A stretch of 32,000 nucleotides of DNA from positions 1,770,001 through 1,802,000 of the forward strand of contig NC_017448.1 of the NCBI RefSeq assembly GCF_000146505.1, read 5' to 3'. Origin of the DNA: Fibrobacter succinogenes subsp. succinogenes S85 (GTDB lineage: Bacteria; Fibrobacterota; Fibrobacteria; Fibrobacterales; Fibrobacteraceae). Below the pieces are notes generated by a model. It made no database searches, was not told the origin of the DNA, and saw only the letters and a program-made list of their open reading frames with translations. Below, piece after piece: positions 6,331-11,243 of this stretch (within the stretch, counting starts at the first letter, position 1; each line of letters starts with the position of its first letter). Both the position numbers and the translations under genes were made by a program.

Positions 6331-7176
6331 TTAAATGGAGTAGTCTTTTTCCATCATGCCGTAGTCGATGAGAATTTGTTCCAATCGGTCCTGCGTCATC
6401 GGCGTCGGGATGGTAAAGAGCTCGTTTTCGTCGATGTTCTTTGCAAGTTCGCGGTAGACGTTGGCTTGGTTGCAGTTCGGTTCGAAATCAATCACGGTCT
6501 TCTTGCGGATTTCTGCCTGCTGCACGATGTTGTTGCGCGGCACGTACTGGATGAGCTGCGTATTGAGTTCCTTGGTGAATGCACGGAGCAAGTCAAGTTC
6601 GTTATCGACGTTACGGCTGTTGCAGATAATACCGCCGAGTCGCACTTCACCGCGTTCAGCGTACTTGGCAATACCCTTACAGATGTTGTTTGCAGCGTAG
6701 AGGGCCATCATTTCGCCGGAAGCAACGATGTAGATTTCCTTCGCCTTGCCTTCACGAATCGGCATGGCGAAACCACCGCACACAACGTCACCGAGCACGT
6801 CGTAGAAAACGTAGTCGAGATCTTCGGTGTAAGCACCGAGCTGTTCAAGCATGCTGATGGAAGTGATGATACCGCGGCCAGCGCAACCCACGCCCGGTTC
6901 CGGGCCACCGGATTCCACGCAGCGAACGCCCTTGAAGCCAACCTTTTCAAGGTCAGAGAGCTGGATTTCGGTCTTGTTATCGCGAATGGTATCGAGCACA
7001 GTCTTCTGATGGAGACCACCGAGCAAGAGTCGAGTAGAGTCAGCCTTCGGGTCGCAACCGACAACGAGCACGTGCTTGCCCTGTTCCACAAGGCCTGCGG
7101 TCAAGTTCTGAGTCGTAGTAGATTTACCGATGCCGCCCTTACCATAGATAGCGATTTGACGTAATTTCTTTGACAT
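6331..7176 (-). CDS. nifH: Nitrogenase iron protein (NifH)-family ATPase/reductase, copy 1
   Basis: 281 aa. P-loop [25 protein letters not shown], cluster-ligand contexts [11 protein letters not shown] and [19 protein letters not shown] aaggagac. Monocistronic and divergent from the nifB-like operon. Confidence 0.9.
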
Positions 7177-7226
7177 ATTATAAGTGTCTCCTTAGGATTT
7201 TCCTATAGGAACGCTAGGCAAGAACA

Positions 7227-7255
7227 AGTTTAGAATTTGCGTCTACCCTTTTCAA
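7227..7255 (-). promoter_or_regulatory. Sigma-70-like promoter of NifH-like gene 1
   Basis: On the - strand: TTGAAA (7255-7250), 17-nt spacer, TAAACT (7232-7227). It lies inside a 44-nt block (7229-7272) identical to 22913-22956. The motif gaacgctagg (7209-7218) sits just downstream of the predicted start site. Confidence 0.5.
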
Positions 7256-7468
7256 TACTTTTTTAGCCCATTTCGTCACAATTATTCTTTTTTGCGCGTT
7301 GCTATAAAAACTTTTTATAACCCCATTCAGCGGGAATCTATTGCACGCCCAGAAAAAACATTTTTTTTAATTTTCACCCCTTGTTTCATATTGTCTTTCG
7401 CTATACCGCTTTTTAAATTTTTGCCCGAACTTCTTCGACAGGGAAGTAAAAGAATTAATCACACAACA

Positions 7469-8460: not shown

Positions 8461-9763
8461 AATATTGGATCAGGCGCGCTACAAATGCGCTTTGGCAGCA
8501 ATGCAGACCGTGCAATCCATTCCTGGAGCAATTCCCGTTTTGCATTCCGGTCCGGGATGCGCATCCAAGCTAAACGATAACAACGGCACGAGCGGCAGAT
8601 TCAGCCCCAACATTTACCCTTGCACAAGTATCAGCGAAAAAGAAGTCGTGTTTGGCGGTGCAGACAAGTTGCGTTCAACCATCAGCAACGCTCTCAAAAT
8701 CATCGATGCCGACCTGTTCGTGGTTCTTTCCGGTTGCACGGGTGAAATCATTGGTGACGACATTCAAGAAGTCGCAGAAGAATTCGAAGATGCCGAAAAG
8801 CCTGTCATCTGGGCAAAGACACCGGGATTCAAGGGCAACAACTACATCGGTCACGACTGGATTTTAAAGAGCATCTTTGAACAGTATGTGAGAAAGTTCA
8901 AGGGCGAAGCCCCGAAGGAAAAGGGACTCGTCAACTTATTCGCAGGCGTGCCACAGCAGGATCCGTATTGGCTTGGCAACTTGCGTGAACTCGAACGTCT
9001 TTTGCAGTCCATCGGTCTCAAGACGAATACGATTTTCGGTTTTGGTCGCGGGCTTGAAAACTTGCAGAAGATTCCGACGGCAGAATACACAATTCTAGTT
9101 TCGCCGTGGGCAGGCCTCGAAAGCGCCCAGTATCTCGAAAAGGAATTCAACATTCCGCTGTTGCACTACCCGATTTTGCCAATTGGTGCGGCCGAAACGA
9201 CAAAGTTCCTCCGTACGGTCGCTGAGTTCACGGGCGCTGACAAAGAACTCACGGAATCCGTTATCCAGCAAAACGAAGCGCAGTTCTTCTACTACCTGGA
9301 ACGCTACGCCGATACGATTCTCGAAAGCCGTATCGTGAGCAAGCGCTTTACCGTCGTGAGCGAAGCCCAGTACGTAATTGCTGTGACCAAGTTTCTCGTG
9401 AACGACATGGGTCTTTTCCCGCAAAAACTGTTCGTTACGGACGACACGCCGGAAGCATTCCGCGAAGAAGTCTCGCAAGAAACAAACACGCTGAATTACG
9501 ACATCAAAACAAAAGTCGAGTTCACCACGGACGGTTTCGACCTCCAGAATCAAATCCGCAAAATGGACTTTGGCGGCTCCCCGCTCATCATCGGTTCGAA
9601 CTGGGAAAAGAAACTCGCCCACGAACTCAAGGGCCACTTCGTGAACATCAGCTATCCGATGATCGAAAAAATCGTCATCAACTCGCATGTGGCAGGTTAT
9701 TCCGGCGGTCTTTACTTGTTGGAAGACATCTACTCTGCAGCACTTTCCATGCTGAAAATTTAA
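8453..9763 (+). CDS. Nitrogenase component-1 family protein, beta-like (NifK/NifN-like), set 1
   Basis: 436 aa. Cys12 (YKCAL), Cys36 (HSGPGC) and Cys95 (LSGCTGEIIGDD) have spacing like NifK Cys70/95/153. TPGFKGNNYIGHD resembles NifK TPSFVGSH. Confidence 0.8.
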   Translation: MAKILDQARYKCALAAMQTVQSIPGAIPVLHSGPGCASKLNDNNGTSGRFSPNIYPCTSISEKEVVFGGADKLRSTISNALKIIDADLFVVLSGCTGEIIGDDIQEVAEEFEDAEKPVIWAKTPGFKGNNYIGHDWILKSIFEQYVRKFKGEAPKEKGLVNLFAGVPQQDPYWLGNLRELERLLQSIGLKTNTIFGFGRGLENLQKIPTAEYTILVSPWAGLESAQYLEKEFNIPLLHYPILPIGAAETTKFLRTVAEFTGADKELTESVIQQNEAQFFYYLERYADTILESRIVSKRFTVVSEAQYVIAVTKFLVNDMGLFPQKLFVTDDTPEAFREEVSQETNTLNYDIKTKVEFTTDGFDLQNQIRKMDFGGSPLIIGSNWEKKLAHELKGHFVNISYPMIEKIVINSHVAGYSGGLYLLEDIYSAALSMLKI

Positions 9764-9773
9764 GGAGGATCTA

Positions 9774-11243
9774 ATGCCATTTAATTTTAAAAATGCAAAC
9801 GTCGGTGTTCGCGAAAACCGTCTTGGATCCATCACTGGATTTTCGGGCGACTTGGAAACGCTCGCACACCGCTCACAGTGCGGATCTGTCAAGAATCGCG
9901 AACGTTGCTTTAGCCAGTCCAGTTCTTGTCTTTCGGGCTGCGCTTTGGACCAGCTCATCAGTATCCGCAATGTGGCTGTCGTCTATCACGCTCCAGCCGG
10001 TTGCGTTGCGCTTGCGCAAGGTGAAGATGTCAAATTCCGCCAACTCGCCGAACGCATTAACGAAAAGACAAATTCCGTTTACGTCTGCACGGACTTGAAC
10101 GAAAACGATACAGTCTTTGGCGCTATCGAAGCACTCCGCAAGGCAACGCAGTACACGTACGAAAAGTTCCACCCGGAAGCGATTTTCCTCTCGTCTTCTT
10201 GCGTATCGGGCGTGATTGGCGAAGACGTTGACGGTCTCGCCGACGAACTCGCAGATGAATACGATATTCCAATTATTCCAATCCATTGCGAAGGTTTCAA
10301 GAGCCGCATTTGGGCCAGCGGTTTCGATATCGCGGACCACGCCGTTTTGCAGGGAATCGTGAAACCGCCCGAGAAGAAGAACAACAAGATCATCTTCAAG
10401 AACTTCTTTGAAAGCGCACGTCCGCAAATTACGGAACTTTTCAAGGAAATCGGCGCAGAACCGCAATTCGTTTATTGTAACTCCACTGTTGAAGAACTTT
10501 CGCATTTGAGCGAAGCCCAAGCAATGGTTTGCATTTGCGGAACGCTCGGCACCTACCTCGGCAACGCCCTCGAGGAAACTTACGGTGTACCATATGTGCG
10601 TACGATTAACCCGAACGGCATTACCGGTTTTGAAACTTGGTTCCGCGCTATCGGCAAAACGATTGGCAAGGAAGCCGAAGTGGAACGCTACATCGAGCGC
10701 CAGCGCGCCATTTACTTGCCACAAATCGAAGAAGTCAAGAGGGAACTCAAGGGTCTTCGCGCCGTGATCGGTATGGGCCCGGGCTACACCTACGAAGTTT
10801 CGCGCGTATTGCAGGAACTCGGTATGGAAGTGGTTCACGGTCTTGCTTGGCATTATGACTACAAGTACGATAACGGCCAGATTCCGCCAGCACTCGAACA
10901 TTTGCTGAAGACATCGCCAAAGGGGCTCAAGCTCACTGTGGCTGACCAACAAAACTACGAAGTGATGAGCGTATTGAACTATCACAAGCCGGACATTTAC
11001 TTTAGTCGTCATCCGGGCTCAACCGTATGGGCCATCAAGCAGGGTTACGCAGCGCTCTTCGTCGCCGATGAATACATGATTTTCGGTTACGAAGGAACAC
11101 TCAACTTTGCCAAGAGCATCCTCGATACCATCAAGAACCGTAGCTTTGAAAAGAGTCTTGCCGCTCGAATCAAGTTACCCTATACCAAGTGGTGGTACGA
11201 ACAAGATACAGACAAGTTCTTGAAGCCGGAAGGCGCAAGGTAA
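9774..11243 (+). CDS. Nitrogenase component-1 family protein, alpha-like (NifD/NifE-like), set 1
   Basis: 489 aa. Motifs YHAPAGC, SSSCVSGVIGEDVD, IPIHCEGFKS and MVCICGTLGTYLGNALEETYGVPY (by eye, the NifD Cys275 context). SD aaggagg. Confidence 0.8.
   Translation: MPFNFKNANVGVRENRLGSITGFSGDLETLAHRSQCGSVKNRERCFSQSSSCLSGCALDQLISIRNVAVVYHAPAGCVALAQGEDVKFRQLAERINEKTNSVYVCTDLNENDTVFGAIEALRKATQYTYEKFHPEAIFLSSSCVSGVIGEDVDGLADELADEYDIPIIPIHCEGFKSRIWASGFDIADHAVLQGIVKPPEKKNNKIIFKNFFESARPQITELFKEIGAEPQFVYCNSTVEELSHLSEAQAMVCICGTLGTYLGNALEETYGVPYVRTINPNGITGFETWFRAIGKTIGKEAEVERYIERQRAIYLPQIEEVKRELKGLRAVIGMGPGYTYEVSRVLQELGMEVVHGLAWHYDYKYDNGQIPPALEHLLKTSPKGLKLTVADQQNYEVMSVLNYHKPDIYFSRHPGSTVWAIKQGYAALFVADEYMIFGYEGTLNFAKSILDTIKNRSFEKSLAARIKLPYTKWWYEQDTDKFLKPEGAR

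Follow-up and report, generated by a model that had tools for sequence, protein, structure and literature searches.

The stretch of DNA analysed here, referred to throughout as the window, comprises 32,000 nt of the Fibrobacter succinogenes subsp. succinogenes S85 genome (NC_017448.1, 1,770,001-1,802,000, forward strand) and carries two sets of nitrogenase-like genes, the first of which, set 1, is our subject. Set 1 consists of a gene for a NifH-type Fe protein (H1) and, divergent from it, an operon for a radical S-adenosylmethionine (SAM) protein (B1), a beta-like subunit (K1) and an alpha-like subunit (D1). An earlier note on this DNA had described these genes from the letters alone, and its coordinates and gene order (B, beta, alpha) all match our open reading frame (ORF) calls. 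The features of set 1, numbered from the first letter of the window, are:

6331-7176, minus strand: H1, NifH-type Fe protein, ORF of 281 amino acids, with a Walker motif and the [4Fe-4S] ligands C98 and C133; ATP-dependent reductase
7177-7587, no strand: bidirectional intergenic/promoter region between H1 and B1 (copy 1)
7588-8460, plus strand: B1, minimal NifB/MarB-type radical SAM protein, ORF of 290 amino acids
8453-9763, plus strand: K1, beta-like subunit, ORF of 436 amino acids
9774-11243, plus strand: D1, alpha-like catalytic subunit, ORF of 489 amino acids
11267-11295, plus strand: hairpin of the intrinsic terminator closing the B1-K1-D1 unit

The end of B1 runs 8 nt into K1 (8453-8460), as had been noticed before, and the B1-K1-D1 unit shows translational coupling. 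The terminator lies 24 nt past the D1 stop and has a 13-bp stem (7 GC pairs) and a 3-nt loop followed by TTTTTTGTTT; because of this strong terminator B1-K1-D1 is a discrete transcription unit. All the motifs picked out earlier were recovered, namely GKGGIGKST at residue 12, GCAGRG at 97 and VVCGGFAMP at 131 of H1; HPCF at 12, CNIECRFC at 33, CMSTNG at 111, TVTVNAVDPE at 135 and HCAHCRADAVG at 255 of B1; and HAPAGC at 72, SSCVSGVIGEDVD at 141, IHCEGFKS at 170, IWASGFDIADH at 179 and MVCICGTL at 251 of D1. Comparison with the locus of another Fibrobacter species (L006) gave ratios of non-synonymous to synonymous substitution (dN/dS) of 0.03, 0.05 and 0.03 for B1, K1 and D1, respectively, indicating strong purifying selection. 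A scan of the whole window at the Rfam gathering threshold matched zero families, therefore no SAM or other riboswitch controls these operons.

Relationship of K1 and D1 to methylthio-alkane reductase

K1 and D1 both match the 'nitrogenase component 1' family (PF00148, E-values of 8e-73 and 1e-66, respectively) and both score far under all the equivalog cutoffs of the Nif, Vnf, Anf, NifEN, Bch and Cfb proteins. D1 reaches 134 with nifD (cutoff 653) and ∼69 with VNFD/ANFD (cutoffs above 820), its best NCBIfam match being nifE with 150.5 (cutoff 505), and K1 reaches 110 with nifK (cutoff 427) and 47.9 with nifN (cutoff 327). Scores so far under the nifD and nifK cutoffs bear out the view that set 1 is nitrogenase-like but not a nitrogenase.

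Among solved structures the best match was methylthio-alkane reductase (Mar) of Rhodospirillum rubrum, whose entries 9fmg and 9d9u were recognised through their Foldseek descriptions. D1 matches MarD (9fmg_A, and also the alpha chain of 9d9u) with 308 bits against 118 bits for the runner-up, and K1 matches MarK (9d9u_C) with 361 bits against 85 bits. Sequence identity is 35% between D1 and MarD, 40% between K1 and MarK, and 33% between D1 and D2, the alpha-like subunit of the second set in the window. The best superposition of an AlphaFold2 model of D1 (pLDDT 81.8, pTM 0.85) was likewise with MarD 9fmg_A, where Foldseek gave TM-scores of 0.86/0.90 and a root mean square deviation of 2.8 Å over 482 columns; TM-scores were ∼0.66-0.70 with NifD and, normalised to the query, 0.65-0.68 with NifE chains. 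Being best by sequence and by fold, Mar is the closest characterised relative of set 1, in line with the earlier note.

Reference residues for Mar were taken from its cryo-electron microscopy structure (PMC12552129) and from a study of the Rhodopseudomonas palustris paralogues (bioRxiv 10.64898/2026.08.20.746119), and conservation of the D1 residues was surveyed over 117 sequences of the D1 family; the K1 cysteines are given as aligned.

P-cluster: MarD C66/C91/C158; D1 C52/C77/C143; kept in 116-117 of 117
P-cluster: MarK C32/C56/C121; K1 C12/C36/C95; aligned
Cofactor: MarD C270; D1 C255; kept in 117 of 117
Loop I: MarD R428-H429; D1 R412-H413; kept in 117 of 117
Cluster-facing: MarD W195, F199, H375; D1 W180, F184, H360; kept, family-invariant
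Pocket: MarD H194; D1 Ile179; changed, family-invariant
Pocket: MarD S196; D1 Ala181; changed, family-invariant
Pocket: MarD F374; D1 Trp359; changed, family-invariant
Other: MarD C73; Asp in D1 of the window; mostly Asn in the family
Other: MarD M70; D1 Cys56; family-invariant
Other: MarD Y98; Gly in D1 of the window; mostly Asn in the family

The three cysteines that had been likened by eye to those of NifK are the K1 residues C12, C36 and C95, which align with the MarK P-cluster ligands, and the cysteine of MVCICGTL in D1, C255, aligns with MarD C270, the equivalent of NifD C275. The reported replacement of the NifD motif VSQSLGHH by IWASGFDIADH also holds, Gln191 becoming Trp180 and His195 becoming Phe184, the same exchange as in MarD. 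When the Gln191, His195 and His442 equivalents were scored, an intact nitrogenase cofactor environment was not found, since the Gln and His are replaced and the His ligand lies on the Mar-type loop I, whose Arg-His pair is a possible hallmark of Mar (PMC12552129). Set 1 shares with Mar the six P-cluster cysteines, the Cys and Arg-His cofactor ligands and a NifB-type maturase that lacks the NifX domain, but three of the six active-site residues (H194, W195, S196, F199, F374 and H375) that R. rubrum Mar and R. palustris Mar1 and Mar2 have in common are changed in D1. Judged by these residues, set 1 is built like Mar and its pocket is different.

Phylogeny, distribution and gene order of the D1 family

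A neighbour-joining tree (Kimura distances, 200 bootstraps) was built from the full-length matches of D1 among representatives at 50% identity, together with D1, D2 and R. rubrum MarD, the last transcribed from the pairwise alignments of D1 and D2 to the solved structures. The D1 family was monophyletic in 98.5% of bootstraps with its remoter representatives (34-51% identity) included, MarD, D2 and one representative (P0132) formed a clade in 100%, and a clade of Mar with the group containing the representative P0127, from which D1 is excluded, was found in 84%. D1 was joined with Mar to the exclusion of that group in 0 of 200 bootstraps and does not fall inside the MarD clade. On this tree the D1 family is a separate lineage in the NifB-dependent branch of Group IV, and it is possibly one of the Group IV clades that were labelled D or E in 2020, which have no assigned function (PMC13474568). 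Naming clades through their 90% clusters gave almost no organism names (one Polyangiaceae metagenome-assembled genome (MAG) and some Butyrivibrio).

P0127 carries exactly, with an offset of one residue, the published cysteine pattern of NfaD from Endomicrobium proavitum, and we refer to its clade as Nfa-like. The locus of P0127 and P0299 (L081/L082, 8001-17369) reads D-K-NifX-NifB and continues with a Cys/Met pyridoxal phosphate enzyme, an NMT1/SsuA-type substrate-binding protein (SBP), a permease, an ATPase and NifH. Its context is of the sulfur type and not of the nitrogen type, and therefore does not help to separate nitrogen from sulfur roles.

The protein search returned 1,182 relatives of D1 at E<=1e-20, and a scan of one genome per species confirmed 575 D1-family loci. 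The top loci are from rumen Fibrobacter MAGs in which D1 is 97-100% identical, and one of them, labelled F. succinogenes RUG13674 (L002), shares synteny with the window over the stretch MetY to K2, which places the window in a rumen Fibrobacter. Many Treponema carry the family at 61-76% identity, including rumen forms, the isolate T. ruminis RU1 and T. primitia ZAS-10 from the termite gut, and it is also found in Clostridium aminobutyricum, C. acidisoli, C. puniceum, Lachnospiraceae, Oscillospiraceae, Selenomonas and Propionispira. By these matches the clade is a large one that spans Fibrobacter, Treponema, Clostridia and Negativicutes. General statements in the literature list Fibrobacter as a likely Mar carrier and credit Fibrobacteres with nitrogenase-like orthologues; a search for work on Fibrobacter or Treponema nitrogenase-like enzymes gave such statements and none on the D1 clade, and a Caldicellulosiruptor paper that also came up deals with true nifHDKEB and has no bearing here. 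In the part covered of the supplement of Morimoto et al. 2024, all the Mar orthologues are alphaproteobacterial; within that part the names Fibrobacter, Propionispira, C. aminobutyricum, C. puniceum and C. acidisoli are absent and Treponema occurs only as T. primitia ZAS-2, under isethionate reductase (Isr). As far as this part goes, the D1 clade appears not to have been classified in that study.

The gene order of set 1 had been called atypical. The order B, beta, alpha is indeed present here, but beta before alpha (K>D) occurs in 35 loci that are exclusively from Fibrobacter or rumen Treponema (73-100% identity), whereas alpha precedes beta in 36 loci from Firmicutes, termite-gut Treponema and two Treponema-lineage MAGs (L013 and L038; 61-76% identity). 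The K>D order is thus a lineage-specific rearrangement confined to one subclade and not a trait of the family, and the fact that rumen Treponema and Fibrobacter share it suggests gene transfer between them.

D1K1 often has company. In Firmicutes it usually abuts another DK pair (L054, L056, L070, L073, L079 and L043) or lies a few kb from one (L068 and L074), and the extra D protein there (P0149 clade) keeps the cofactor Cys and lacks the loop-I His. In Treponema (L018, L022 and L027) an Nfa-like pair of the P0134 type lies a few kb downstream. Together these are arrays of nitrogen-fixation-like (NFL) paralogues with B, X and H genes nearby.

Set 2, the maturase and the Fe protein

The second nitrogenase-like set lies further along the window, on the minus strand and next to a carrier gene.

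19012-22858, minus strand: set 2, H2-D2-K2, Mar orthologue by sequence
22013-22858, minus strand: H2, Fe protein of set 2
20382-21986, minus strand: D2, MarD orthologue
19012-20364, minus strand: K2, MarK orthologue
22859-23222, no strand: bidirectional promoter region between H2 and NifX (copy 2)
23223-23672, plus strand: stand-alone NifX/NafY-type cofactor-carrier gene (PF02579, E-value 2.7e-13)

D2 matches 9fmg_A with 613 bits, identity is 54% between D2 and MarD and 49% between K2 and MarK, and D2 keeps all six of H194, W195, S196, F199, F374 and H375 as well as C270 and R428-H429. By score and residues it is set 2 that is the Mar orthologue; set 1, whose likeness to MarBHDK had been pointed out earlier, is not, D1 being in a separate clade. 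The nearest relatives of D2 (80-87% identity) include proteins that carry the names of Paludibacteraceae and Prevotella MAGs in their source, and slightly remoter ones come from Succinivibrio, Clostridium kluyveri ('NifD2'), Ruminiclostridium and C. pasteurianum, a host range that suggests horizontal spread of Mar among gut anaerobes.

B1 carries all the core NifB motifs (radical SAM CX3CX2C, HPC, TNG, TVTxN and CxxCRxDAxG) and matches only the radical SAM part of the nifB profile TIGR01290 (positions 10-277 of 441), which agrees with its description as a NifB-like radical SAM protein without a NifX domain; its score of 267.6 bits falls short of the cutoff of 343.65 because it lacks this C-terminal domain. 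Residues 8-275 match the solved minimal NifB proteins 7jma, 7bi7 and 7jmb with 278 bits, and by its motifs and these matches B1 appears to be a full-length minimal NifB, the predicted synthase of the L-cluster ([Fe8S9C]). The missing domain has a counterpart elsewhere in the window, as the product of 23223-23672 fits the section of TIGR01290 that describes NifX at the C-terminus (profile positions 328-437). Its gene is the first of an X-GNAT-CysK series that is divergent from H2, and a NifX homologue stands between B and K1 in L007 (B-X-K1-D1) and in many Treponema loci. The claim that the 32 kb hold no nif accessory genes therefore fails on NifX and stands for nifE/N, nifV, nifI/glnB and a molybdate transporter. 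The GNAT acetyltransferase gene that follows NifX (23674-24174, plus strand) likely has its true start at ATG 23674 (MSLSKF...), and homologues of its product (44-49% identity) lie within ∼10 kb of D1 in L022, L030 and L077.

B1 is the sole NifB of the window, set 2 having no NifB gene of its own there, and so it probably serves both enzymes. In R. rubrum NifB can stand in for MarB, and R. palustris cannot grow on dimethyl sulfide (DMS) or dimethylsulfoniopropionate (DMSP) as sulfur source without a NifX homologue (bioRxiv 10.64898/2026.08.20.746119), which makes it plausible that B1 and NifX are shared by the two sets.

H1 belongs to PF00142 and scores 457.8 bits with the nifH model TIGR01287, above the curated cutoff of 394.35, and with its Walker A motif and two [4Fe-4S] cysteines it is of the NifH type. 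It is 74% identical to Clostridium pasteurianum NifH (1cp2) in a gapless alignment (449 bits) and matches R. rubrum MarH (9fmg_D) with merely 287 bits. H1 and H2 differ at 2 of 281 residues and at 67 of 846 nucleotides (dN 0.005, dS 0.43), a dS that rules out a recent duplication or an assembly artefact as the origin of the two copies; on these figures the genes were duplicated long ago and have been very strongly constrained. The two promoter regions (7177-7587 and 22859-23222; repeat family D6) can be aligned over nearly their full length with long identical blocks, and AACGCTAGG occurs exactly twice in each, so the duplication spans nifH and the entire divergent intergenic region (6331-7587 and 22013-23222). 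GAACGCTAGG is found upstream of B1 in five loci, all of them from Fibrobacter. Copy 1 would drive H1 and B1-K1-D1, and copy 2 would drive H2-D2-K2 and X-GNAT-CysK. With the duplicated region upstream of both sets, co-regulation of these and of X-GNAT-CysK is likely, and it may follow sulfur supply.

H1 passes the curated nifH model and resembles clostridial NifH, yet the window contains no nitrogenase genes; diazotroph surveys of the rumen or the termite gut that are based on nifH could therefore miscount such Fe-protein genes. Universal nifH primers target the AIYGKGG and SGEMMA regions, and H1 and H2 carry both (6331-7176 and 22013-22858).

The sulfur-assimilation island

The remaining genes of the window give set 1 a sulfur context, as had been proposed. 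SBP and ATP-binding cassette (ABC) transporter components and outer-membrane proteins (OMPs) recur among them.

1375-2661, plus strand: MetY, O-acetylhomoserine sulfhydrylase (TIGR01326, 614 bits, cutoff 495)
2687-3619, plus strand: CysK (TIGR01139, 462 bits, cutoff 351)
11661-14646, plus strand: cystathionine gamma-synthase/lyase-family, CysK/CBS-like and LCM-type SAM methyltransferase genes
14725-18625, minus strand: OMP and SsuA-type ABC transporter (SBP, ATPase, permease)
24190-31374, plus strand: CysK-like, OMP, SBP, SBP, CysK-like, permease, ATPase

Among the sulfur genes, MetY and CysK would capture methanethiol or sulfide. The others are three more CysK-like genes, one gene of the cystathionine gamma-synthase/lyase family and two ABC systems of the SsuA type, both accompanied by an OMP. 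The region 11661-14646 scores 568 bits with NF004821 and 565 with NF005810 (both below cutoff), 329 with TIGR01136 and 148 with TIGR00027, and it matches PF04072; its CysK/CBS-like gene is probably 12829-13740. It resembles an operon for reverse transsulfuration from methionine to cysteine, a pathway assignment that we infer, and its layout recalls the Met-to-Cys operon of Bacillus subtilis. The CysK-like genes of the block at 24190 score 277-279 bits with the CysK/M subfamily, below its cutoff, and its ABC components are of the SsuA family. Weak NCBIfam matches of the ABC components in the window to the 'Sao' families, which pointed to a paper on selenoproteins and organometallic compounds, were set aside as their scores are far below cutoff. 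The statement that every neighbour belongs to Cys/Met metabolism or transport was too broad, since the window also encodes MnmA, an Rpn/YhgA transposase-like protein, a WYL regulator, GNAT, the LCM-type methyltransferase and the two OMPs.

Sulfur genes recur in related loci. Of the 40 whose flanks reach at least 8 kb on each side, 65% have B, 60% have NifX and 68% have NifH. A CysK-like gene lies near D1 in 60% of them and SsuA-type ABC components in 35%; these last two figures become 86% and 64% in the K>D subset from Fibrobacter and rumen Treponema. In two other Fibrobacter species (L006 and L007) D1 is directly followed by the CysK-OMP-SBP-SBP-CysK-permease-ATPase block that in the window starts at 24190, apart from D1. 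Because of this arrangement, ∼13 kb must have been inserted or rearranged between D1 and the block in the lineage of the window, a segment that includes set 2 and the second copy of H and promoter.

Several smaller elements accompany these operons. Three short ORFs that combine a Shine-Dalgarno sequence with a run of Cys codons lie ahead of MetY-CysK (MRCRMCNQAEGGRA, 1201-1245, plus strand), the cystathionine gamma-synthase-like/CysK-like/methyltransferase operon (MNFPFNSLNFACCCRCRTGI, 11469-11531, plus strand, followed by a terminator-like hairpin and U7 at ∼11558-11600) and the OMP-SBP-ATPase-permease operon (MCCSCKFSNN, 18697-18665, minus strand). Shuffled sequences would be expected to contain the strict Cys-leader pattern 0.2 times and the window contains it twice, the leaders of another Fibrobacter, L005 (MYFLFNSLNSVCCCRCRTGI and MCCSCKILQ), keep the Cys runs with changed flanking residues, and we regard these ORFs as candidate leader peptides of attenuators that would sense Cys-tRNA. 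No Cys-run leader ORF was found in the H-B or H-X intergenic regions of the window. A 71-nt AT-rich element that is 80% identical in its two copies lies upstream of the OMP gene at 25420 (25277-25347) and of the second SBP gene at 27455 (27325-27395), and is probably a shared promoter or operator. A putative transcriptional regulator with a WYL/WCX domain (24-1013, plus strand) lies upstream of MetY, where it marks the left edge of the island. The Rpn/YhgA-like 'transposase_31' gene that adjoins H1 (4935-6017, minus strand) contains six 21-nt tandem repeats (5068-5243) encoding heptads of the EERQQ(I/M)TEERLQM type; it is present in L005 and absent between MnmA and H1 in L002, and may mark a rearrangement point.

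Proposed function and alternatives

We propose, with moderate confidence, that set 1 encodes an active two-component reductase, equipped with a P-cluster and a NifB-made [Fe8S9C] cluster, that acquires sulfur anaerobically by C-S bond cleavage and acts on a substrate unlike that of the neighbouring Mar. B1 would build the carbide-containing L-cluster, which the stand-alone NifX encoded beside set 2 probably carries, and K1 and D1 would form a heterotetramer with the P-cluster at the subunit interface on the six cysteines and the L-cluster buried in D1 on Cys255 and His413, with Arg412 alongside. H1, and the near-identical H2, would supply electrons at the expense of ATP hydrolysis. The C-S bond of an organosulfur compound would be cleaved reductively, the freed methanethiol or sulfide would be fixed by the neighbouring MetY and CysK-type enzymes, and the cell would in this way obtain sulfur anaerobically.

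The organosulfur C-S reduction that had been suggested for these genes thus finds support in the Mar-like fold and ligands and in the sulfur context, the function itself being drawn from homology and context, but the substrates of Mar cannot be carried over with it. A separate clade and the change of three of six active-site residues leave that transfer unjustified. As the pocket differs throughout the family, the substrate is probably not the DMS, ethyl methyl sulfide (EMS) or methylthioethanol of Mar, and the presence of set 1 beside a true Mar in the same genome also argues for different substrates. Speculatively, since D1 of related Fibrobacter and Treponema loci is linked directly in operons to SsuA-type transporters, an OMP and enzymes like CysK, the substrate may be imported and perhaps non-volatile, with sulfide or a thiol as product. 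Extending this, we tentatively advance that D1K1 may represent a new substrate class of L-cluster enzymes, in which a non-volatile organosulfur compound, and not the volatile thioethers of Mar, would enter through the co-transcribed SsuA-type ABC system and outer-membrane channel, the thiol or sulfide would pass to CysK-like enzymes and a canonical-type NifH would drive the reaction; this is somewhat doubtful at present.

Could set 1 simply be a redundant Mar isozyme, acting on the set 2 substrates (DMS, EMS and 2-methylthioethanol) and kept for dosage or differential regulation? The Mar cofactor ligands and fold, the retention of MarD Trp195, Phe199 and His375, and the duplicated promoter region and Fe protein common to both sets would be consistent with this. 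D1 and D2, however, are merely 33% identical, the three changed residues are fully conserved in both proven Mar enzymes and are altered invariantly across the D1 family, substrate-channel positions also differ, and the family persists as a separate clade across several phyla. Moreover, the Mar paralogues of R. palustris differ in substrate range, even those that are 65% identical (bioRxiv 10.64898/2026.08.20.746119), and we consider an isozyme unlikely.

A non-catalytic role, in which K1D1 would act as a NifEN-like scaffold or maturase and pass the B1 L-cluster to D2K2 or other NFL paralogues, is less probable again. In NifEN a [4Fe-4S] site of simpler make replaces the P-cluster and the precursor site is exposed at the surface, whereas K1D1 retains the six P-cluster cysteines in full together with a buried Cys/Arg-His site of the MarD type, and the Trp and His that face S2B are invariant. 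K1D1 is co-transcribed with NifB and nifE is the best NCBIfam match of D1 (150 bits against 134 for nifD), but the NifE and NifN equivalog cutoffs are not reached (150.5 against 505 and 47.9 against 327) and the D1 model is far nearer MarD (query TM-score of 0.86) than NifE (0.65-0.68). A second DK pair lies within 10 kb in 48% of the well-flanked related loci, a tandem arrangement for which Dos Santos et al. 2012 (PMC3464626) proposed such a role, but in only 14% of the well-flanked K>D loci of Fibrobacter and rumen Treponema, and in R. rubrum MarB or NifB alone is enough for active MarDK (PMC13474568). As for an unconventional nitrogenase or another reductase of nitrogen compounds, Group IV-A Nfa has been reported to support N2-dependent growth of Endomicrobium proavitum and Heliophilum fasciatum (PMC13474568), and set 1 does have a canonical NifH-type Fe protein and a NifB. 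Against this stand the absence of nifE/N, nifV, nifI/glnB and a molybdate transporter from the 32 kb, Trp and Phe where NifD has Gln191 and His195, a His ligand placed on loop I as in Mar, the position of D1 outside the Nfa-like clade and a sulfur context throughout; Fibrobacteres were not predicted to be diazotrophs (PMC3464626), and even the Nfa-like representative sits among Cys/Met and SsuA-type genes. A nitrogen role is therefore highly improbable. Isr was ruled out, as B1 is a NifB and D1K1 carries all the cluster ligands.

Several points weigh against our proposal of a C-S reductase with a substrate of its own. Its function is read from homology and gene context, and context has so far been a poor guide to the substrates of Group IV enzymes (PMC13474568); NflDK3 of R. 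palustris, in a similar context, was inactive on all tested compounds (bioRxiv 10.64898/2026.08.20.746119). By score and identity the Fe protein is nearer true NifH than MarH, and the sharing of B1 presumes that the genome has no further nifB elsewhere. The D tree was made by neighbour joining on Kimura distances and not by maximum likelihood, and the P0127 clade would be Nfa-like by its cysteine pattern alone.

It has been published that Group IV nitrogenase-like genes accompany NifB homologues and sulfur genes and that one organism may hold several Mar-like paralogues, and set 1 is an uncharacterised variant within the Group IV nitrogenase-like C-S reductases. The present analysis adds to this by outlining a large, uncharacterised sister clade (over 1,100 proteins and over 570 genome loci) in which all P-cluster and L-cluster ligands are kept and the pocket has a signature that is both distinct and invariant. 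Also new are the finding of this clade and a true Mar side by side at one locus, the canonical-type NifH as partner of set 1 and the duplicated module of H and promoter. Uncharacterised clades are the main open problem of the field and tractable hosts are scarce (PMC13474568). Cultured hosts of the D1 clade include Treponema ruminis RU1, Clostridium aminobutyricum DSM 2634, C. acidisoli DSM 12555, C. puniceum DSM 2619 and Propionispira raffinosivorans DSM 20765. If D1K1 does represent a new substrate class as tentatively advanced above, Fibrobacter, Treponema and Clostridia of the rumen and termite gut would have several DK paralogues as a modular toolbox served by one set of NifH, NifB and NifX, and many 'nifH' genes from such habitats would serve sulfur scavenging and not nitrogen fixation.

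Comparison with known systems

R. rubrum MarBHDK (Group IV-C; 9fmg and 9d9u) and set 1 have in common the architecture of an Fe protein and a DK heterotetramer, the NifB-type maturase without a NifX domain, the six P-cluster cysteines, the Cys and loop-I Arg-His cofactor ligands, Trp and Phe in place of NifD Gln191 and His195, the best fold match (TM-scores of 0.86-0.90) and a context of sulfur-assimilation genes. They differ in that D1 forms a separate clade with 35% identity (40% for K1), has the changes H194I, S196A and F374W together with channel changes, and lacks the N-terminal Cys-rich extension of MarD and D2; the Fe protein of set 1 is nearer true NifH, and its order is B-K-D with a divergent H and not the B-H-D-K of Mar. 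Mar itself turns DMS, EMS or 2-methylthioethanol into methanethiol and a hydrocarbon, and it is induced when sulfate is below ∼100 µM.

The Mar2 (MarBHDK2) and NflDK3 systems of R. palustris CGA009 offer a parallel, as they are also extra Mar-like paralogues in one sulfur-regulated region, with B and H split from DK and a NifX homologue nearby (bioRxiv 10.64898/2026.08.20.746119). In both organisms the paralogues differ in pocket or channel residues, those of R. palustris also in substrate range. However, the R. palustris paralogues are 52-65% identical to Mar1 and restricted to Alphaproteobacteria, whereas D1K1 is at 33-35% and widespread in Fibrobacter, Spirochaetes, Clostridia and Negativicutes.

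IsrBHDK of Rhodobacter capsulatus (Group IV-F) is likewise a nitrogenase-like system for anaerobic organosulfur assimilation that lies beside SsuA/TauA-type transporters, but IsrB is a BciD-like radical SAM protein and B1 a true NifB by its motifs, and Group IV-F diverges at the P-cluster cysteine positions and has no known conserved cofactor-coordinating residues (PMC11423573, PMC13474568). NfaBHDK of E. proavitum (Group IV-A) resembles set 1 in its NifB homologue, P-cluster cysteines, Mar-type Cys/His ligands and similar lengths; D1, on the other hand, is without the NfaD cysteine pattern (C50, C53, C60, C78 and C81) and outside the clade that carries it, and set 1 is without a nitrogen-regulatory context.

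With respect to Mo-nitrogenase (NifHDK with NifB and NifEN), set 1 has its His ligand on a different loop, Gln191 and His195 replaced, no homocitrate or Mo genes, and D1 and K1 far under the nifD, nifK, nifE and nifN cutoffs. The likenesses are an Fe protein 74% identical to C. pasteurianum NifH and the retention of the P-cluster ligands and the Cys275 equivalent, and B1 is about as close to the archaeal minimal NifB proteins as these are among themselves.

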